A DNA stretch of 64,000 bases. Source: Halorutilales archaeon Cl-col2-1 (GTDB lineage: Archaea > Halobacteriota > Halobacteria > Halobacteriales > Afararchaeaceae). The position numbers and the translations under genes are program-made. The DNA lies in NCBI GenBank assembly GCA_041891055.1, contig CP169074.1, forward strand, positions 1,440,001-1,504,000. The letters are read 5' to 3'. The notes beneath the pieces were generated by a model. It was not told the origin of the DNA. It saw nothing but the letters and a program-made list of their open reading frames with translations, and did no database searches. Shown here one piece after another: positions 19,989 to 29,236 of this stretch (position 1 is the stretch's first letter; each line of letters begins with the position of its first letter).

Positions 19989-20055
19989 AAGATTGTGGTT
20001 CGAGTTTGGGTGTCCGACAGTATTATTGAGCGACCGATGTAACTAAGCAGTAATA

Positions 20056-21264
20056 ATGCGAAAACAGCACGGTTTCAGAAGTAACACACGTCTCGACGAC
20101 GCCCTCGACGTCTTTCTCGACCACGTCTCACGTATCGAGAGGTCGGAGACCGTCGGGCTCGAAGATGCCGACCGCAGAGTTGCGGCGAGCGACGTCGAGG
20201 CGGAGAGGGACGTTCCGGGCTACGACAGAGCGGCAATGGACGGCTACGCCGTGAGGGCGAAAGACACCTACGGCGCGAGTACGGAGTCGCCCTCGTCACT
20301 CGAAATCACCGAGGGAGAGGTCGAAGAAGGCGAGGCAGTGGCTGTGAGCACGGGAGAGGAGATACCCGACGGAGCCGACGCAGTCGTGATGGTCGAGGAC
20401 ACGAGACAGGTCGGCGGGATGGTCGAGGTCGAGACCGGGGTGTCGAGGGGAAAGAACGTCGGCGAGGCGGGCGAGGACGTCGCTGTGGGGGACTCCGTCG
20501 TCGACGAGGGGCACCGTCTGCGTCCGAGTGACATAGCGGTTCTGAGGAGTCTCGGAATGGACGAGGTCGAGGTCTACGACAAGCCCGAGGTCGCAGTAAT
20601 TCCGACGGGCGAGGAGCTCGTCGAGTCAGACCCCGATCCGGGTGAGATCATAGAGACAAACGGCGAGATGGTCTCGAACTACGTCGAGAGATGGGGTGGA
20701 AGACCGCGTTACGAGGATATAGTCGAAGACGACTTCGATGCTATCTCGGAAGCCGTCGTAGACGCCGCCGACGCCGATCTGGTCGTGACTACGGGGGGGT
20801 CGAGTGTGGGCGAGAGAGATCTGACCCCGGAGGTCATAGACGAAAACGGCGAGATACTCGTCCACGGAGTCGGAATAAAGCCCGGACATCCCGTGGGTCT
20901 CGGTGTCGTCGAGGGTACACCGGTCGTGATGCTTCCCGGATACCCCGTGTCTTGTGTGGTCAACTCGTTCCTTTTCGTGCGCCCCGCCGTCCGCGAACTC
21001 GGAAGCATAGACGCGCCGCCAGACCCGACGGTCGACTGTGTCTTAGACGAGAAGATAAACTCCGAGGTCGGAAAGAGAACATTCACACGTGTGAGTGTAG
21101 AGAGACGTGACGGAGAACACGTTGGGGTTCCGACGAGAACGAGCGGCGCGGGAGTCCTGTCGAGTGTCTCGGAGGCTGACGCAGTTATCGAGACGGGCGA
21201 GGAGAACGAGGGCTACGACGCGGGTGAGGTCGTAGAGGCAGTCTACTGGGAGTGGGGATGTTAA
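20056..21264 (+). CDS. moeA: Molybdopterin molybdotransferase MoeA
   Basis: RAAMDGYAV, GADAVVMVED, TGEEL, TTGGSSVGERD, KPGHP, LPGYP. Confidence 0.92.
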   Translation: MRKQHGFRSNTRLDDALDVFLDHVSRIERSETVGLEDADRRVAASDVEAERDVPGYDRAAMDGYAVRAKDTYGASTESPSSLEITEGEVEEGEAVAVSTGEEIPDGADAVVMVEDTRQVGGMVEVETGVSRGKNVGEAGEDVAVGDSVVDEGHRLRPSDIAVLRSLGMDEVEVYDKPEVAVIPTGEELVESDPDPGEIIETNGEMVSNYVERWGGRPRYEDIVEDDFDAISEAVVDAADADLVVTTGGSSVGERDLTPEVIDENGEILVHGVGIKPGHPVGLGVVEGTPVVMLPGYPVSCVVNSFLFVRPAVRELGSIDAPPDPTVDCVLDEKINSEVGKRTFTRVSVERRDGEHVGVPTRTSGAGVLSSVSEADAVIETGEENEGYDAGEVVEAVYWEWGC

Positions 21265-21265
21265 G

Positions 21266-23149
21266 ATGAGCACGAGAAAAGAGTTCAGGGACTTAGCGAG
21301 TCTCGAAGAGGCTGTCGAGGTCGTAGAGGAGCTAAAGACCGAGAGACGTACCGAGACAGTCGGTATAAGAGAAGCCGACGGACGTGTTCTGTCGGAGGCT
21401 GTCGACTCGCCGATAGACGTTCCTGGATTCGACCGGTCGGTGATGGACGGATACGCTGTGAGAGCGGAGGACACCTACGGAGCGACAGAGGACGACCCCG
21501 TCGAACTCGAAGACACGGGGACGGTACGCGCGGGAACTCGTCCCGAGATAGCCGTAGACGAAGGCGAGGCAGCCGAGATACCCACCGGAGCGGTGATACC
21601 TGAGGGTGCCGACGCAGTCGTGATGGTCGAGGAGACTCAGGAGACCGACGGAGGTGTCGAGGTCTACAAGGCGGTCGCACCCGGCAACAGCATAATGTCA
21701 GCGGGCGCCGACGTTGCCGCGGGCGAACGTGTCCTCTCGAAGGGTACACGTCTCACGCCGCGCGAGATTGGTCTCCTCGCGGCGCTCGGGTTCGACGAGG
21801 TTGACGTCTACGAGAAGCCAAAGGTCGGCATCGTGAGCACGGGAGACGAGATAGTCAGACCCGGAGGGGGTCTCGAAGCCGGACAGATCTTCGACGTCAA
21901 CACATTCTCTGTCGCCGCCGCGGTCGAGGAAGCCGGCGGAGACCCGGTCGTATACGAACACGTCGGCGACGACTACGACAGGATGGAGGAGGTACTGAGA
22001 AAGGCGAGCGAGGACTGTGACCTCGTCCTCTCAAGCGGTTCGACGAGCGCGAGTGCAGTCGACGTAGTCTACCGAGTTATAGAGGAGAAAGGCGAGATGT
22101 TACTCCACGGAATCGCCGTAAAGCCCGGAAAGCCGACTATATTCGGAAGACTCGGCGACGCGTCGTATATCGGTCTTCCCGGGAACCCGATCAGCGCCCT
22201 ATCGATCTTCCGTCTCTTCGCGTCGCGCGTGGTAAGACACGCCGCGGGTCTCCCCGAGGTACCCGAGTCGCGGAAGACAGAGGCAGTGATGGCGGACTCG
22301 GTGCGCTCGGACGTCGGAAGGACACGTCTCCTTCCCGTCGGTCTCGTCGAGTCGCCCGAGAGAGGTCTCCTCGCGTACAGCCTCGACAAAGGAAGCGGAG
22401 CGACGACTTCTCTCTCGGAGGCGGACGGATACGTCGTCGTAGAGTCAGAGGTCAACTACCTCGCTGACGGCGACGAAGTCGAGGTGGTTCTCCTCGGAGA
22501 CAACGTCGAGGCTCCGGCTCTTCTCGGCGTGGGCGGGGCGGACAGCGTCGTAAACGAGGCAGTCGAAGATACCGACGCAAGGTCCAGATGGCTCGACGTC
22601 GGATCTGTCGCTGGAGCGAGGAAAGTCAGGGACGGCGTCGCGGACATAGCGGGGGTTAACCTCTCCCCCGACTACCTAGACAGCCTCGGTGTCGAGGACG
22701 CGTGTCTCGTAAGGGGATACGAGAGACATGTGGGTCTCGTAGTCGAAGAGGGTAATCCCGAGGGGTACGAAGGAATAGGGGATATCGAAGACGGCGTCAG
22801 GTTCGCGGGACGCACCGACGCGTCGGGTACACGCGTCCTACTCGACGAGATTCTCGAAGAAGACGAAAAAGAAGTCGAGATTCTGAGCTTCAGGTCACAC
22901 GACGGGGTCGCCAACGCAGTCAAGAACGGGAAGGCAAAGGTCGGCATAGGTCTCGAAGACGTCGCCGAGGAACACGGTCTCGGGTTCGTGCCTCTGAGAT
23001 GGGAGAGCTTCGACTTCCTCGTCGCCGAACCGCGCGCCTCGAAGGACGGTGTCGAGAGATTCTTGGAGACCGTAGAGTCGCTGGATCTCGAAGACGAGGT
23101 CGGCTACAGGTCGGTCGAGAACGCCGGAGAGGTCGTCGAGGACTGGTAG
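21266..23149 (+). CDS. moeA: MoeA with C-terminal periplasmic-binding-protein-like domain
   Basis: DRSVMDGYAV, SGSTSA, KPGKP, LPGNP; C-terminal PBP domain (SGTRVLLD, HDGVA, GLGFVPL.WE.FD). Confidence 0.9.
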   Translation: MSTRKEFRDLASLEEAVEVVEELKTERRTETVGIREADGRVLSEAVDSPIDVPGFDRSVMDGYAVRAEDTYGATEDDPVELEDTGTVRAGTRPEIAVDEGEAAEIPTGAVIPEGADAVVMVEETQETDGGVEVYKAVAPGNSIMSAGADVAAGERVLSKGTRLTPREIGLLAALGFDEVDVYEKPKVGIVSTGDEIVRPGGGLEAGQIFDVNTFSVAAAVEEAGGDPVVYEHVGDDYDRMEEVLRKASEDCDLVLSSGSTSASAVDVVYRVIEEKGEMLLHGIAVKPGKPTIFGRLGDASYIGLPGNPISALSIFRLFASRVVRHAAGLPEVPESRKTEAVMADSVRSDVGRTRLLPVGLVESPERGLLAYSLDKGSGATTSLSEADGYVVVESEVNYLADGDEVEVVLLGDNVEAPALLGVGGADSVVNEAVEDTDARSRWLDVGSVAGARKVRDGVADIAGVNLSPDYLDSLGVEDACLVRGYERHVGLVVEEGNPEGYEGIGDIEDGVRFAGRTDASGTRVLLDEILEEDEKEVEILSFRSHDGVANAVKNGKAKVGIGLEDVAEEHGLGFVPLRWESFDFLVAEPRASKDGVERFLETVESLDLEDEVGYRSVENAGEVVEDW

Positions 23150-23805
23150 TCGCCTGAGTTCGAAATACGTGCCGCGTCAAGAGACGCGATCTCGTCGACT
23201 GACTCGACGTTTATGTCGGCTTCTACGGGATGTCCGAGACGGTCGATATGGCTCGCAGTAATACCTGCGTTCCAAGCGCCTTTGACATCGGAGGTCGAGT
23301 CGCCCACCATGACGGTAGACTCGGTGTCAGCGTCCGACGAGGGCTCGGCACCGATCTCAGACATACATCTCTGTATCGGATTAGGGTCGGGCTTGAAGCC
23401 TATGTCGTACGAACACGAGACGACGGTGTCGAAATGGTGGTCGAGTCCCGCCTTTTCGAGAGCGGGGACGGCGAGTTCAGGTGGTGAATGTGTCACGACC
23501 CCCTTCTTCGCGTCGATCTCCTCTATCGAGTAGGCGTCGTCGTAGGCGTAGGTGTACTCTAAACGTCTCTCGACTGTGTCGACCTCGTCGAAGACGTCCC
23601 AGAAATCCCGCGGCTCGTCGTACCCCCACGACCGGAGTATCTCGTCACGTGAGTCTTCGCCGATTCCGTGCCACAGATTACGTATCTGGTCGTCGGAGAA
23701 GGAACGCCCGAGACGATCCTCGACCTCGTCGAAGACTGCCCTCCTGTACTCTTCCTCGACGTCGACTATGACACCGTCGAGGTCGAAGAGGTAGTAGTCG
23801 AACAT
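23104..23805 (-). CDS. HAD-superfamily hydrolase
   Basis: FDLDGV, KPDP, VGDSTSD; 3' end overlaps moeA2 by 46 bp. Confidence 0.85.
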   Translation of the reverse strand: MFDYYLFDLDGVIVDVEEEYRRAVFDEVEDRLGRSFSDDQIRNLWHGIGEDSRDEILRSWGYDEPRDFWDVFDEVDTVERRLEYTYAYDDAYSIEEIDAKKGVVTHSPPELAVPALEKAGLDHHFDTVVSCSYDIGFKPDPNPIQRCMSEIGAEPSSDADTESTVMVGDSTSDVKGAWNAGITASHIDRLGHPVEADINVESVDEIASLDAARISNSGDYQSSTTSPAFSTDL

Positions 23806-23898
23806 CTACTTCTACGTACGTCTCCACCGATATAATGCCTTGTGCCTTCTGCTAAAATCCGATACATTCTTTAATCCGAGAGACTAAGATGTGGGTGA

Positions 23899-23972
23899 GG
23901 GTTCGTGGTCTAGCTGGTTATGACACCTCCTTGACATGGAGGAGGTCCCCAGTTCGAATCTGGGCGAACCCA
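23899..23972 (+). tRNA. tRNA-Val (GAC)
   Basis: GGGTTCG/CGAACCC acceptor stem, CCTCC-TTGACAT-GGAGG anticodon arm, CCCAG-TTCGAAT-CTGGG T arm, discriminator A; TTTAAT TATA upstream. Confidence 0.97.
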
Positions 23973-24944
23973 TGAACGATTTTACGAGTGAATGGTGAGA
24001 ACAGATTCGGATCAGGGAACGTCGTGACCGTGGTTCAAATCTGGGCGAACCCATGAACGATTTTACGAGTGAATGGTGAGAACAGATTCGGATCAGGGAA
24101 CGTCGTGACCGTGGTTCAAATCTGGGCGAACCCATGAACGATTTTACGAGTGAATGGTGAGAACAGATTCGGATCAGGGAACGTCGTGACCGTGGTTCAA
24201 ATCTGGGCGAACCCATGAACGATTTTACGAGTGAATGGTGAGAACAGATTCGGATCAGGGAACGTCGTGACCGTGGTTCAAATCTGGGCGAACCCATGAA
24301 CGATTTTACGAGTGAATGGTGAGAACAGATTCGGATCAGGGAACGTCGTGACCGTGGTTCAAATCTGGGCGAACCCATGAACGATTTTACGAGTGAATGG
24401 TGAGAACAGATTCGGATCAGGGAACGTCGTGACCGTGGTTCAAATCTGGGCGAACCCATGAACGATTTTACGAGTGAATGGTGAGAACAGATTCGGATCA
24501 GGGAACGTCGTGACCGTGGTTCAAATCTGGGCGAACCCATGAACGATTTTACGAGTGAATGGTGAGAACAGATTCGGATCAGGGAACGTCGTGACCGTGG
24601 TTCAAATCTGGGCGAACCCATGAACGATTTTACGAGTGAATGGTGAGAACAGATTCGGATCAGGGAACGTCGTGACCGTGGTTCAAATCTGGGCGAACCC
24701 ATGAACGATTTTACGAGTGAATGGTGAGAACAGATTCGGATCAGGGAACGTCGTGACCGTGGTTCAAATCTGGGCGAACCCATGAACGATTTTACGAGTG
24801 AATGGTGAGAACAGATTCGGATCAGGGAACGTCGTGACCGTGGTTCAAATCTGGGCGAACCCATGAACGATTTTACGAGTGAATGGTGAGAACAGATTCG
24901 GATCAGGGAACGTCGTGACCGTGGTTCAAATCTGGGCGAACCCA
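23973..24944 (+). repeat. Tandem array, 12 x 81 bp, each unit ending in a 21-nt copy of the tRNA-Val 3' end
   Basis: Unit TGAACGATTTTACGAGTGAATGGTGAGAACAGATTCGGATCAGGGAACGTCGTGACCGTGGTTCAAATCTGGGCGAACCCA; 972 bp; the antisense ORF shows 12 identical 27-aa repeats. Confidence 0.97.
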
Positions 24945-25052
24945 CTGATCTAACTTTTGTGAGGGGAATACTGAATACAGTTCGAACCAGAGAAGAGAGC
25001 GCGCTGTGACCTTATTCTTCTAACAGAGTTAGACTCTTATCCCACCAGCACC

Positions 25053-25080
25053 CTTAAGGTGTATGGCTACGTCCATACAC
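25053..25080 (+). promoter_or_regulatory. TATA plus inverted-repeat operator of the TA-like operon
   Basis: CTTAAG (25053-58) followed by GTGTATGG-N6-CCATACAC (25059-80), 4 nt before the ATG. Confidence 0.65.
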
Positions 25081-25084
25081 ATAG

Positions 25085-25387
25085 ATGCAAGACGGGGGTG
25101 TAGACGAGGAGCCCGACTACCGTATAAATCTACCATCGGGTACTGTCGTCGACGTAACCATAAACAAAGTTGAACCTTGGGAGAAGTATCCAGAAGGATG
25201 GCATTACGGTCTCCATTACGGAACACGCGAGGGTGAAACACTCCTACGGTATGACAACGGACACAACGACGACGAACACCACCGCCACACCCCAGACGGT
25301 GACGAGACTGTGGAGTTTCCGGGTATGGAAGAGCTATACAGACGTTTCCTCGAAGAGGTGAGACAGCATGAACAAGAAAGAAACTGA
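25085..25387 (+). CDS. DUF6516/TumE-like putative toxin
   Basis: YGLHYG...ETLLRYDNGH...HHRH...EFPG...L..RF..EV pattern. Confidence 0.7.
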   Translation: MQDGGVDEEPDYRINLPSGTVVDVTINKVEPWEKYPEGWHYGLHYGTREGETLLRYDNGHNDDEHHRHTPDGDETVEFPGMEELYRRFLEEVRQHEQERN

Positions 25388-25769
25388 ATCCGAGACAGAG
25401 ACCGAGACCACGCTTCACGTCAAGTATATGGAGTCCGACAAGGCTCTCGAAAAGCCGCTCGAAGGCATAAGGGAGATGGAAGAGGGCGGCGAGCCCGACG
25501 AGACACCGATGGTGATCGTCACCACGAAGGAAGACCTCAACCGCGTGACACGTGACACGACTATCGACCTCATAAACGCCGTCGCGAAACACGAGCCCGA
25601 GAGCATACGTCAGACTGCACGTCTCGTCGACAGGTCGCCGATAGACGTAAAGAAAAACCTCGACGAACTGGAGAGAATAGGTCTGATCCGTCTCGAGGAG
25701 GAGGACGGCGCGAAACGTCCCGTCGTATGGTACGATACGCTCGACCTCGAAGTTCCGGTTTCGGCGTAA
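25368..25769 (+). CDS. HVO_A0114-like HTH putative antitoxin
   Basis: EPESIRQTARLVDR....KKNLDELERIGLI......KRPVVWYD; overlaps the upstream gene. Confidence 0.7.
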   Translation: MNKKETESETETETTLHVKYMESDKALEKPLEGIREMEEGGEPDETPMVIVTTKEDLNRVTRDTTIDLINAVAKHEPESIRQTARLVDRSPIDVKKNLDELERIGLIRLEEEDGAKRPVVWYDTLDLEVPVSA

Positions 25770-25882
25770 GCGTCAGACTCGTCTGACATACGGTTACGTT
25801 TAGATCTATCTCAAGACGGATAATTCTACTCGACACTACGCAACCTGTAAAGAGTTAAACCCGAGATACGTCTATCTTCTGT

Positions 25883-27304
25883 ATGGGAGAACTCCGTATC
25901 ACGAACACGCTCACGGGCGAGAAGGAGGTCTTCGAGCCGCGCGACTCGGACTCGGAAGACAGTGTTGTCTCTCTCTACGTCTGCGGACTCACGGTTAGTG
26001 ACGACCCACATCTCGGACACGCACGTACGTGGGTCTCCTTCGATGTCCTTCACAGGTACTTGGAGCACAAGGGCTACGAGGTCAGGCATGTCGAGAACAT
26101 CACCGACATCGACGACAAGATCATAGACAGAGCCCACGACGAGGACGTCTCCCCGAGCGAGGTCGCGTCGAGGTACTCGCACCAGGTCTACGACGACATG
26201 AGGGCTCTCAACCTCAGACGTGTCAACGTCCGTCCGCGCGTGACACAACACGTCGACGACATAGCCGAGATGGTAGGGACTCTGATCGAGAAGGGCTATG
26301 CCTACGAGTCAGGCGGCGACGTCTACTTCGACGTCTCGGAGTTCGAGGAGTACGGCAAGCTCTCGGGACAGAAGCTCGAAGAGCTCGAGTCGCAGGGCGA
26401 GGAGTCTGGAAAGAAACGCGATCCCGCCGACTTCGCTCTCTGGAAGAAGTCGAAGGAGGGCGAGCCTTCGTGGGAGTCGCCGTGGGGCGAGGGACGTCCG
26501 GGATGGCACATAGAGTGCTCGGCGATGAGCACGACACATCTCGGCGAGAGTATCGACATACACGGAGGCGGACGTGATCTAGTCTTCCCCCACCACGAGA
26601 ACGAGATAGCACAGACAGAGGCAGCGACCGACCACGACTTCGCGCGGTACTGGATGCACGTCGGTCCTCTCAGGGTCGAGGGCGAGAAGATGTCGACGTC
26701 TCTCTCGAACTTCTGGACCGTACACGACGCACTCGACGAGTACTCGGCGAACGAGATACGTGCCTTCCTGATATCGACACAGTACGCTAAGCCACAGAGC
26801 TTCGACGACGGGTCTCTCGAGGAGGGCGCGAAGAGATGGGAGAGGATCGAGAACGCCGTACGTACGTGTGAGGACGCGATGGACTCCGACGCCGCGAAGG
26901 CTAAGGAGACCGACGAGAGCCTGAGGGAGACAGCCTCGGTAGCCGAGGAGAGATTCGAGGAGGCGATGGACGACGACCTCAACACCCCCGAGGCACTCGC
27001 AGTTCTCTTCGATCTCGTCAACGAGGTAAACGCCCACGTCGAGGACAACGAAGTCTACGACTACGAGGGACTCTTCGAGGCGTGGAGGACTCTGAGAGAA
27101 CTCGGCGAGGTTCTCGGATTCGACTTCTCGGAGGGACGCAGTACTGAGGGTCTGTCTGACAGCCTCATAGAACTACTCCTCGACCTGAGAGAGGATGAGA
27201 GGCAGAAGGGCAACTACGAGACAGCCGACTCCATAAGGGACGGTATACGTGACCTGGGGGTTGAGGTCGAGGACACCGACGAAGGCACGACGTATAGATA
27301 CTAG
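25883..27304 (+). CDS. cysS: Cysteine--tRNA ligase
   Basis: YVCGLTV..PHLGHAR, DFALWK, GRPGWHIECSAM, DIHGGG.DL.FPHHENE, KMSTS. Confidence 0.96.
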   Translation: MGELRITNTLTGEKEVFEPRDSDSEDSVVSLYVCGLTVSDDPHLGHARTWVSFDVLHRYLEHKGYEVRHVENITDIDDKIIDRAHDEDVSPSEVASRYSHQVYDDMRALNLRRVNVRPRVTQHVDDIAEMVGTLIEKGYAYESGGDVYFDVSEFEEYGKLSGQKLEELESQGEESGKKRDPADFALWKKSKEGEPSWESPWGEGRPGWHIECSAMSTTHLGESIDIHGGGRDLVFPHHENEIAQTEAATDHDFARYWMHVGPLRVEGEKMSTSLSNFWTVHDALDEYSANEIRAFLISTQYAKPQSFDDGSLEEGAKRWERIENAVRTCEDAMDSDAAKAKETDESLRETASVAEERFEEAMDDDLNTPEALAVLFDLVNEVNAHVEDNEVYDYEGLFEAWRTLRELGEVLGFDFSEGRSTEGLSDSLIELLLDLREDERQKGNYETADSIRDGIRDLGVEVEDTDEGTTYRY

Positions 27305-27888
27305 ACATCGACGGGACAGCCAGCGACCTCGCCGCCCCTCATTCCGTCGGCGATCCAGTAGACAGAGACTAGGAGAGCGAGCGCCGCAAGGACGGAAAAC
27401 TCGACGCCGTCAAACGGCAGGAAGGCGAGACCTCCGACGACTCCAAAGACCGAGAGGATTCCGGCGAGAACGGCGGTTCCACACGCCGCACATCCGGCTC
27501 CGAGGACGCCGAGAAAGAGACCCACAGCACTTCCGGAGCCCTCACGTACCGAGACTCCGTTTTCCTTGAAATGGTAGGCGAGCATCGAGAGGTTGACCCC
27601 GAAGAGTCCTGCGACGCCTACGATGAAAGTCGACATCACGAAGGGGTACGAAGGGCTCACGAAGGGGTAGAGACCCTGGAGGATTCCGAGGCGCGCGCCG
27701 AGGGGCAGGCTTCCGGTGACAACTGTGTCTAAGAAGAGCGCCATGTTCTGTGAGATTACGAGGACGTTTAGACCCACGAACCCCGCGACGGCTGCGAGTA
27801 CGGCATAGGCGGGGATCGAGAGAACGAGACGCGCAGTCCTCGCCATGAGACGGAAGTCATCCTTACGTTTGGGTACCGTGAGACTCAT
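27301..27888 (-). CDS. Membrane protein with CxxC (GAGCAACG) and C-terminal GCP
   Basis: About 4 TM segments; apparently co-transcribed with the DsbA-like gene (7-bp gap). Confidence 0.7.
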   Translation of the reverse strand: MSLTVPKRKDDFRLMARTARLVLSIPAYAVLAAVAGFVGLNVLVISQNMALFLDTVVTGSLPLGARLGILQGLYPFVSPSYPFVMSTFIVGVAGLFGVNLSMLAYHFKENGVSVREGSGSAVGLFLGVLGAGCAACGTAVLAGILSVFGVVGGLAFLPFDGVEFSVLAALALLVSVYWIADGMRGGEVAGCPVDV

Positions 27889-27895
27889 TGTTATG

Positions 27896-28624
27896 TTATA
27901 GCTGGAGAGCGTTCTCGAAGACGGAGTAGCCTCTCGCTCCCTCTACCTTGGTGACGTACTCGCCCGACTTGAAGAGTGTGAAGGTCGGAGTCGCCCTTAT
28001 ACCCGAGTTCCTTCCAGCCTCCATGTCGTCCTGTATCTCCTCGTCGTAGCCGTGGTTCCTCGCTTCCTCAACGACCGCCGCGGCATCGAGGTCGGTGTTC
28101 TGGCTGAGATACGACTGGGTCTCGTCGAGGACGTTGTCGGTCGATATCGAGTCCTGGTTCGAGAAGTAGAACTCCTTGAGATCCCAGTATGCGTCGGCGT
28201 CACGCGAGTAGACGGCTTCGAGCGACTGCGCCGCGGGATTGCCCCAGTCCTTGACTATGGGCATGAGACGTGAGTAGTAGGTTACCTTGCCCGTGTCTAT
28301 GAGCTCCGACTTTATCTGAGGGAGAGTGTTGTCGTCGAACCTCGCACAGAATGGGCACCCCGGACCCTCGAATGAGACAATGACCGCCTGTGTCTCGGAC
28401 GGCGGGTCTCCGAGGTGGGGCTCGTCTTGTATTCCGACGGTCGACGAGTGGCTCTCGAATGTCTCTGTCGCGTCGGACTGAGATTCAGAACCAGATCCAG
28501 ACCCGGAGTCAGAAGCCCCTGTCTCAGAACCGCCCCCACCTGTCATTCCTGTACATCCCGCGACCGAGACGGCTCCTACGGCACCCGCTATACGGAGGAA
28601 GTTTCTTCTGCGTCTGTCGTCCAT
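27896..28624 (-). CDS. Tat-exported DsbA-family thioredoxin lipoprotein
   Basis: RRNFL twin-arginine, VAGC lipobox, CPFC, ATPTF cis-Pro loop. Confidence 0.88.
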   Translation of the reverse strand: MDDRRRRNFLRIAGAVGAVSVAGCTGMTGGGGSETGASDSGSGSGSESQSDATETFESHSSTVGIQDEPHLGDPPSETQAVIVSFEGPGCPFCARFDDNTLPQIKSELIDTGKVTYYSRLMPIVKDWGNPAAQSLEAVYSRDADAYWDLKEFYFSNQDSISTDNVLDETQSYLSQNTDLDAAAVVEEARNHGYDEEIQDDMEAGRNSGIRATPTFTLFKSGEYVTKVEGARGYSVFENALQL

Positions 28625-28675
28625 ACTCAGTCTTGTACTTCGAGTAATAAATCCCTGTTCCCTCTTTCGGGTTCT

Positions 28676-29236
28676 CTACTCACACAGAGAGATGAAGTTC
28701 TCGAATACTTCGAGACCCATCTCGGTGTGTGACACCTCGGGGTGCCACTGGACGCCGTATAAGGGAAGAGACTCGTGGCGCATAGCCTCTATCTCACAGA
28801 TCTCACTCGTCGCTGTCTTGACGAAGTCGTCGGGTAGCTCCTTGACCTCGTCGCCGTGGGACGCCCACGTCGATATACTGTCGTCGAATCCCTCGAACAG
28901 ACCCTCTTTTTCGAGTATCTCGACCTCGACGTCGGCGAAACCTCCGTAGTTCCCCTCGTCGACTACCCCTCCGAACTCGTCGGCTATTATCTGATGACCG
29001 AGACAGATTCCGAGGACTGGAACCTGTACGTCGGGCGAGAGGTAGTCGCGCGAGTTCCCCGCCTCTTCGATAGAGGGTCCGCCGCTGAGTATTATGCCGT
29101 CGGGGTCGTCGGTGAGGACGTTCTTGGACGGAACCGAGTTGTCGACTATATCGTGTTCGACTCCCAGGTCGCGCATCGCCCTGCCTTCGAGATGTGTGAA
29201 CTGTCCTCCGTTGTCGACTATAACGATACGTGTCAT
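28676..29236 (-). CDS. guaAa: GMP synthase glutamine amidotransferase subunit A
   Basis: DNGGQFTH, LSGGP, GICLGHQ, QWHPEV. Confidence 0.92.
   Translation of the reverse strand: MTRIVIVDNGGQFTHLEGRAMRDLGVEHDIVDNSVPSKNVLTDDPDGIILSGGPSIEEAGNSRDYLSPDVQVPVLGICLGHQIIADEFGGVVDEGNYGGFADVEVEILEKEGLFEGFDDSISTWASHGDEVKELPDDFVKTATSEICEIEAMRHESLPLYGVQWHPEVSHTEMGLEVFENFISLCE

Follow-up and report, generated by a model that had tools for sequence, protein, structure and literature searches.

Tandem 81-bp units behind a haloarchaeal tRNA-Val gene belong to a widespread family of tRNA-linked hairpin modules

Directly behind an intact tRNA-Val(GAC) gene on the chromosome of Halorutilales archaeon Cl-col2-1, 12 identical 81-bp units stand in tandem. 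Of all the examples we met of a small hairpin element that is widespread at the tRNA genes of haloarchaea, this array is the largest. The array lies in a stretch of 64 kb (the window; contig CP169074.1, positions 1,440,001 to 1,504,000, or G000:C1:1440001-1504000, G000 being our handle for the genome), in whose numbering coordinates are given unless they carry a genome and contig prefix. Its unit is a member of a family of short modules that follow no fewer than 14 of the 43 tRNA genes of G000, and we describe below the anatomy of the family, its restriction to tRNA flanks, its polymorphism in presence and in copy number, its tandem sets in other assemblies and its lineage-specific subtypes. 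The reading we favour, held with about even confidence, is that the units are an insertion element, non-autonomous and directed to the 3' ends of tRNA genes, and that the array was amplified by unequal recombination.

The family appears to be undescribed. A full-text search of the more recent open-access literature (main texts) returned no description of such units in haloarchaea. The nearest match, a palindromic motif behind Methanopyrus tRNA genes (PMC5217627), is unrelated.

The array and its relatives in the same genome

G000 comprises 2.06 Mb (about 55% GC) on four contigs, of which one is the chromosome (1.94 Mb) and three are smaller replicons (116, 10.3 and 3.3 kb), and the tRNA-Val gene is the sole tRNA that ARAGORN and Rfam call in the window. 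Tandem Repeats Finder returned a period of 81 and 12.3 copies between 23952 and 24944 (score 1979); a script comparison reduced the 12 units to a single distinct sequence, and a search of all four contigs for the 81-mer gave 12 matches, each of them within the array. Every unit terminates in GTTCAAATCTGGGCGAACCCA, which is tRNA positions 53-73 with a G-to-A change at T-loop position 57 (G57A). An earlier note, made from the letters of the window, had described a tRNA-Val gene followed by 12 identical units, each closing with the last 21 nt of the tRNA bar one T-loop substitution; the description stands in both respects, with the copy number as the assembly gives it.

Like other modules of the family, each unit is built from four parts: a variable spacer (X), an arm antisense to the T-loop of the local tRNA (D'), a conserved apex (M; AGGGAA..TGACCG) and a copy of the tRNA 3' end (D2). 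This order recurs each 81 bp to 24944, and the parts of the first unit are given in Table 1. The AGATT in the D' arm of the Val unit matches the Val-specific AATCT. Downstream of tRNAs, within 300 nt, the words GAAC-N3-GTGA occur 12 times against an expectation of 0.43.

All 43 tRNAs called by ARAGORN in G000 were searched for a recurrence of their 3' end further downstream. An exact copy, from position 53 (or 52) to 73, lies at +41 to +140 nt behind 11 of them (Phe, Thr(ggt), Lys(ctt), Ser(tga), Leu(caa), Tyr, Val(gac), Ile, Arg(gcg), Leu(tag) and Gln(ctg)), while Leu(gag) and Met have truncated copies; on its left the copy is bordered constantly by 52/53. Just upstream of the copies stands a shared motif, AGGGAA-N4-7-TGACCG-N1-4, itself preceded by a sequence (such as GGATTTGAAC) that is imperfectly complementary, in reverse, to the T-loop. 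The earlier note had proposed to look at other tRNA loci for units of this kind with an attachment-site (att) part that matches the local tRNA, and the 14 or more loci provide them.

A covariance model, R1, was built from an untrimmed alignment (A1, low-information flanks included) of 18 distinct units from G000, from its sister species G001 and from eight other sources (genomes, metagenome-assembled genomes and metagenome contigs). In G000 the model gives 26 matches, all at tRNA genes: 24 are forward matches behind 13 tRNAs (12 at Val, 12 elsewhere), and the remaining two are a reverse-strand echo and a 21-bit match on tRNA-Arg(tcg) itself. No R1 match was found away from tRNA genes or on the three plasmids of G000.

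Two further loci in G000 deserve mention. The tRNA-Leu(gag) and tRNA-Leu(tag) genes (G000:C1:136223-136400 and 1916083-1916266) carry nearly the same 92-nt unit, with one difference, which points to duplication or gene conversion of tRNA and unit together. Behind tRNA-Met (G000:C1, about 242845-242860) a run of at least ten C residues directly follows the truncated tRNA-end copy and is itself followed by another arm-plus-apex remnant.

If the insert between the two copies of the tRNA end were removed from RNA, then a mobile intron in the T-loop whose 3' exon has been duplicated would account for the anatomy: splicing from the first copy to the second would give a mature tRNA, and splice pairs at equal positions of the two copies do regenerate it. 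T-loop introns are known in other archaea. However, across all tRNA-regenerating splice pairs of 11 units there is no consistent hBHBh' motif (BHB, bulge-helix-bulge); at 59/60 the central helix has two of four pairs wherever that site ranks among the best, and the only full BHB score lies outside the tRNA. Nor is there support from circular-RNA sequencing in Haloferax volcanii (PMC7714728), which apart from one mRNA leader found only introns of tRNA and rRNA that were already known. We find an intron scarcely credible.

Hairpin and distribution among haloarchaea

The consensus hairpin of the 18 units in A1 has 16 pairs, six of them with compensatory changes. Bases are paired in 91.6% of cells, compared to 84.3% in shuffles, none of 500 of which reached that value, and to 18-50% when the partners are slid. 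The D' arm tracks the local tRNA: the pair 25/57, in which 57 is the T-loop position, is UA in ten units and CG in six, and the tRNA-specific bases 61-63 are mirrored in the arm (AGATT for Val and Met, GAGATT in genome G141). In the apex GG..GA/GA..CC is invariant, while the two pairs above it change in step, the apical pair being CG in 11 units, GC in four and UA in one; such an apex would fit a helix with tandem G.A mismatches. Readings of the apex as a C/D-box guide or a K-turn were tried and rejected: there is no RUGAUGA box and, by eye, no 3-nt bulge beside the tandem G.A. Folded as RNA, the Val unit gives -23.0 kcal/mol (z = -2.3) with a C.A mismatch that stems from G57A; as single-stranded DNA it gives -7 kcal/mol (z = +1.06), with no significant structure.

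A hairpin of this kind could also mean that the units act as RNA, in the form of a co-transcribed 3' trailer, the third possibility named in the earlier note. Its hairpin would pair the duplicated acceptor strand into a minihelix-like stem open to cleavage by tRNase Z behind the discriminator base. A ladder of 81-nt RNAs would come from the array, and the units would be stable regulatory or sponge trailer RNAs, or signals for processing or termination. Consistent with this, the units constantly share the strand of the tRNA and begin with the first base behind the discriminator, at least five of the seven bases of the acceptor strand are paired in 16 of 24 units, as in acceptor-stem mimicry, and the apical pairs are compensatory; in the core stem (columns 22-30) a hand count gives about 15 G.U against 3 A.C cells, an excess that suggests pairing of the sense strand. 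A stable tRNA-His 3' trailer of about 60 nt was seen on northern blots of H. volcanii (PMC3495736); it may or may not be such a unit, and we treat it as a lead only. Against an RNA role, units stand at only about one third of tRNAs and differ between sister species, and several follow T-rich stretches at which transcription may stop; in genome G022 decay of the distal tRNA-end copy is free, with 10-23 nt still exact; the Val unit itself pairs four of seven acceptor bases; and Rfam 15, searched at E<=1 over 20000-29000, matched the tRNA itself and nothing else. On balance we consider the RNA reading unlikely.

The distribution of the family was estimated in two ways. A strict apex pattern found it in only five of 401 Halobacteriales genomes (reversed-pattern control, 0); among genome contigs it gave ten loci, four of which are non-haloarchaeal chance matches or matches to true tRNAs, and among metagenomes 18 loci, mostly chance. 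The pattern proved too narrow, as most genera carry an apex 10-12 nt longer, and the covariance model corrected for this. At E<=1e-5, R1 matched 127 of 150 Halobacteriales genomes of at least 90% completeness, in 44 of 47 genera, with 1-20 matches per genome. In a sample of the phylum, 11 of 12 other Halobacteriales had matches as against none of 88 genomes of other families, a result that doubles as a control for the specificity of the model. Ten R1 loci that were aligned and inspected have the same module plan.

In G022, R1 gives 20 matches. Of these, 17 follow a tRNA on the same strand at a distance of no more than 450 nt, and 16 different tRNAs are involved. Its units (loci L111-L129) carry an apex of the GAGC type in 18 of 20 cases, compared to one of 13 in G000, in the form AGGGAGC..GCGACC with a nested GAAC-N3-GTGA loop in 18 of 20. 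That subtypes specific to a lineage are common to different tRNA loci is as would be expected for bursts within the lineage. The other three G022 matches have no tRNA called within 450 nt.

Presence, absence and copy number

G001, which belongs to the same genus as G000, has a downstream copy of the tRNA's own 3' end at ten of the 31 distinct tRNAs examined, that of Arg-tct being only partial. Six loci that are polymorphic between the two species were aligned, and their flanks are near-identical. The Gln(ctg) unit is present in G000 only and the Gln(ttg) unit in G001 only, each facing a clean empty site in the other species; at Lys(ctt) the apex and copy are deleted in G001, and at Arg(tcg) G000 shows a deletion between 9-bp repeats.

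At the Val locus G001 has a tRNA-Val followed by one unit, 98% identical to that of the array and with G at position 57. Beyond it come about 170 bp of unrelated sequence without the apex motif (locus L010, minus strand of G001:C48, locus coordinates about 1320-1480). These close with another copy of the tRNA-Val end, the third at this locus and slightly divergent, after which follow the 17-nt flank that G000 also has and cysS. The near-identical unit in G001 shows that the Val unit is older than the split between the two species; G57A and the amplification are specific to G000. All 12 units of the array share G57A, which is absent from tRNA-Val and from the single G001 unit, both with G; together with the perfect identity of the copies this supports a recent amplification, which the earlier note had named as one possibility beside homogenisation.

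Tandem sets are not confined to G000. Genome G190, a single contig, carries four identical 111-bp units behind tRNA-Lys(ttt), with an older unit distal to them whose spacer is orthologous to that of the first unit in genome G090, so that it is the new units that adjoin the tRNA. A metagenome-assembled genome has at least three units behind tRNA-Gln, and two metagenome contigs of one tRNA-Gln locus differ in having two units and one. Closely spaced pairs of R1 matches occur in G046, G015, G148, G178, G037 and G137; at the two such loci inspected, in G046 and G015, neighbouring units differ in their spacer.

These sets bear on whether the array is real. The 12 copies might be an artefact of assembly, over-expanded from one or two true copies: short reads cannot resolve identical 81-bp repeats over 972 bp, and in public short-read metagenome contigs of a G001-like strain the tRNA is followed by one unit and then by a flank of the sister type. 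That single unit may be a collapsed repeat or real: short-read metagenome contigs collapse tandem repeats and cannot give the copy number of an array. Assemblers collapse such repeats and do not expand them, a four-contig genome with a 1.94-Mb chromosome suggests long reads, and other assemblies also carry tandem sets of two to four units. The sets elsewhere make the array plausible, though they do not prove the number 12, and over-expansion strikes us as very unlikely.

Origin of the units and layout of the window

Four features point to a non-autonomous mobile element: the conserved apex, the arms matched to their target, the lineage-specific subtypes and the restriction to tRNA flanks. Such a module would insert at the boundary between the T-loop and the 3' end of a tRNA gene, at either 52/53 or 73/74, moved in trans by an enzyme. 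The tRNA stays intact, the module has the 21-22-nt tRNA end on either side of it as a direct repeat, and D' and the D2 copy pair into a long, imperfect hairpin with the apex (AGG-GA-NN...NN-GA-CCG) as its cap. Once a unit is there, its two 21-bp repeats could give rise to a first duplication, through slippage or through unequal homologous recombination between chromosome copies, and in later expansion the 81-bp homology between units would drive further exchange. Amplification would have followed the appearance of G57A in the displaced tRNA-end copy. If crossing-over took place to the right of position 57, the new junction copy would receive the A variant; this presumed route fits 12 of 12 copies with A and a tRNA with G.

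The earlier note had offered a minimal integrative element, 60 bp of cargo plus an att site, amplified in tandem. The tandem non-autonomous unit comes nearest the mark; the 60 bp are not arbitrary cargo, holding as they do the T-loop-antisense arm and a hairpin apex conserved across the order, and nothing links the unit to an integrase. For its alternative, a decoy array of att sites, we found no evidence of a decoy role.

Several known systems resemble the family. In Escherichia coli, tyrT is followed by about three copies of a 178-bp unit, each with the 3' end of tRNA-Tyr, thought to arise by unequal recombination; here too tandem units lie directly behind a tRNA and end in its 3' segment, whereas tyrT is a single bacterial locus without antisense arm or conserved apex and the haloarchaeal family spans many tRNAs and genera. 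With miniature inverted-repeat transposable elements (MITEs), repetitive extragenic palindromic sequences (REPs) and their hairpin-forming REPIN arrangements, and palindromes derived from IS200/IS605, the units share small size, lack of coding capacity, multiple copies, hairpin formation, lineage-specific subfamilies and, presumably, movement in trans. Inverted terminal arms (D'/D2), at least 14 loci in G000 and the absence of coding sequence are as in MITEs; the duplication, at 21-22 bp, is not of the short fixed kind, and no parent with the same ends was found in G000 or at the loci examined. Unlike any of these elements, the units lie strictly at tRNA 3' ends and their arms are copied from the target. 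They also have a target duplication, and the local elements with a Y1 transposase have unrelated ends, in both respects unlike IS200/IS605 derivatives. An imperfect hairpin with inverse-core and core arms and a junction G|TT of GTTCRAAT recalls the attC sites of integrons, as does the serial arrangement of units behind a single fixed site, to which the newest lies closest; the units differ from integron cassettes in having no reading frames and arms that match the local tRNA, and a search with the integron-integrase profile TIGR02249 gave no match over the cut-off in any of five unit-bearing genomes.

Several points weigh against the insertion element that we favour. Profile searches of the five unit-bearing genomes tied no transposase or recombinase to the family: Y1_Tnp occurs in four of them (it is absent from G027, of 91% completeness) and PF00589 in all five, so that neither discriminates. 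The flanks of four Y1_Tnp loci lack the apex motif and their IS200/IS605 ends share nothing with the apex; at the one locus searched for inverted repeats, that of G000, the repeats are unrelated to it. No free, autonomous or non-tRNA copy of the module was found, and a target duplication of 21-22 bp is far longer than is usual for transposases. The differences between G000 and G001 could all be losses. The Val unit itself is, in the folding model, a weak hairpin; the complementarity between D' and D2 could stem from inverted copying instead of selection; and because R1 favours units with an intact apex, conservation of the apex is partly built into the sample. Finally, the figure of 12 copies is that of the assembly.

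A tRNA that is left intact, with its 3' end duplicated, is also the mark of tyrosine integrases, whose tRNA-targeting elements include a class with a T-loop sublocation. The units might accordingly be scars of such integration, attL and attR at the tRNA with the insert deleted to tens of bases and no mobility of its own, the array being a later tandem duplication. In favour of scars, a 21-nt direct repeat (positions 53-73) stands on both sides of the insert, the repeat runs from the T-loop to the tRNA 3' end and newer inserts adjoin the tRNA. Haloarchaeal proviruses do have tRNA 3'-end duplications of 21-22 nt, as in the provirus of Haloquadratum walsbyi C23 with its 22-nt tRNA-Ala repeat beside an integrase (PMC3119063). 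G000 has 11 PF00589 matches and a 57-kb island at tRNA-Glu(ctc), and the extra 170-bp insert at the Val locus of G001 shows the site to be used by other inserts as well.

Random decay, on the other hand, would not spare one and the same apex and antisense arm, each time beside the distal repeat, behind dozens of different tRNAs in 44 of 47 genera. All units measure 41-140 bp, free of genes, and no kilobase-sized intermediates with the motif were found; the hairpin is common to different tRNAs, and no integrase or replicon with an attP was found to go with it. The 11 PF00589 matches of G000 are all outside the window, and none is next to a tRNA that carries a unit, in keeping with the earlier note's remark that no integrase is nearby. 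Plasmids C2-C4 hold no tRNA 3' ends (18 nt, up to two mismatches), which counts against scars, and two scans of 2.9 million viral contigs revealed no virus-borne site, only one chance match in a coding frame and one host-like tRNA flank. The 57-kb island, the only clear integrase island in G000, has a different att, which starts in the anticodon stem, is about 39 nt long and lacks the apex motif. We hold scars of integrases to be distinctly unlikely. The island itself (G000:C1:1277886-1335129), with tRNA-Glu(ctc), a direct repeat of about 39 nt and three tyrosine-recombinase matches adjoining the tRNA, is a classical integrated element, unlike the mini-units.

A bolder extension of the favoured reading, which we judge quite improbable, is that the element homes by base pairing. 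The D' arm on its apex scaffold would be a built-in guide that anneals to the displaced sense strand of a tRNA gene during transcription or replication; each jump from one tRNA to another, by way of the shared T-loop, would copy D' anew from the target, and arrays such as that of 12 copies would result from repeated self-targeting of the duplicated tRNA end. This would amount to a nucleic-acid-guided insertion system in most haloarchaea.

If the units are an insertion element, guided or not, then many haloarchaea bear, at as many as one in three of their tRNA genes, a small unannotated element, which by re-supplying the tRNA 3' end would have gained a harmless landing site and opened a new route for selfish DNA into tRNA genes. 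It would be a source of rapid change in copy number beside essential genes and possibly of stable trailer RNAs; and as haloarchaea have genetics, they would offer a tractable model for how such inserts move.

The features of the array and its neighbours are collected in Table 1.

Table 1. Features at and around the tRNA-Val(GAC) array (window numbering)
Feature	Coordinates	Strand	Basis
tRNA-Val(GAC), intact	23899-23972	+	ARAGORN; Rfam RF00005, 65 bits
Direct-repeat copy D1, last 21 nt of tRNA-Val (positions 53-73)	23952-23972	+	
Array of 12 identical 81-bp units	23973-24944	+	Script comparison; model R1, 12 matches, 60.8 bits each
Unit 1, spacer X, 30 nt, with GAAC..GTGA-like words and T4 run	23973-24002	+	Sequence
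Unit 1, arm D' (AGATTCGGATC), imperfect reverse complement of tRNA-Val T-loop and first T-stem bases	24003-24013	+	
Unit 1, conserved apex M (AGGGAACGTCGTGACCGTG)	24014-24032	+	Pattern matches; invariant GG..GA/GA..CC; compensatory apical pairs
Unit 1, D2, copy of tRNA positions 53-73 with G57A	24033-24053	+	
Native tRNA-distal flank (CTGATCTAACTTTTGTG), 17 nt, also in G001 after its last tRNA-end copy	24945-24961	+	
HAD hydrolase, neighbour gene	23104-23805	minus	
TumE / HVO_A0114 (TumA-like) pair	25085-25769 (25085-25387, 25368-25769)		
cysS, neighbour gene	25883-27304		

On the minus strand a frame of 353 codons stays open across the array (23884-24945), kept so by a period of 81 bp that is a multiple of 3. 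The long frame is a trap for annotation, from which gene callers could report a repeat protein.

Relative to G001, G000 has an insertion of about 870 bp (24962-25834) between the tRNA flank and cysS, which carries the TumE / HVO_A0114 pair. At its left edge (24980-25011) lies a degenerate look-alike of arm plus apex (GTTCGAACC AGAGAAG..TGTGACC) without a tRNA-end copy; R1 gives no match to it at E<=0.1.

A second family of palindromic words, AAATC-N3-GATTT followed by GCGRAC, was seen elsewhere in G000, in the trailers of tRNA-Ile (G000:C1, 1656390), tRNA-Pro(cgg) (182186) and tRNA-Glu(ttc) (372195) and at two sites away from tRNAs.

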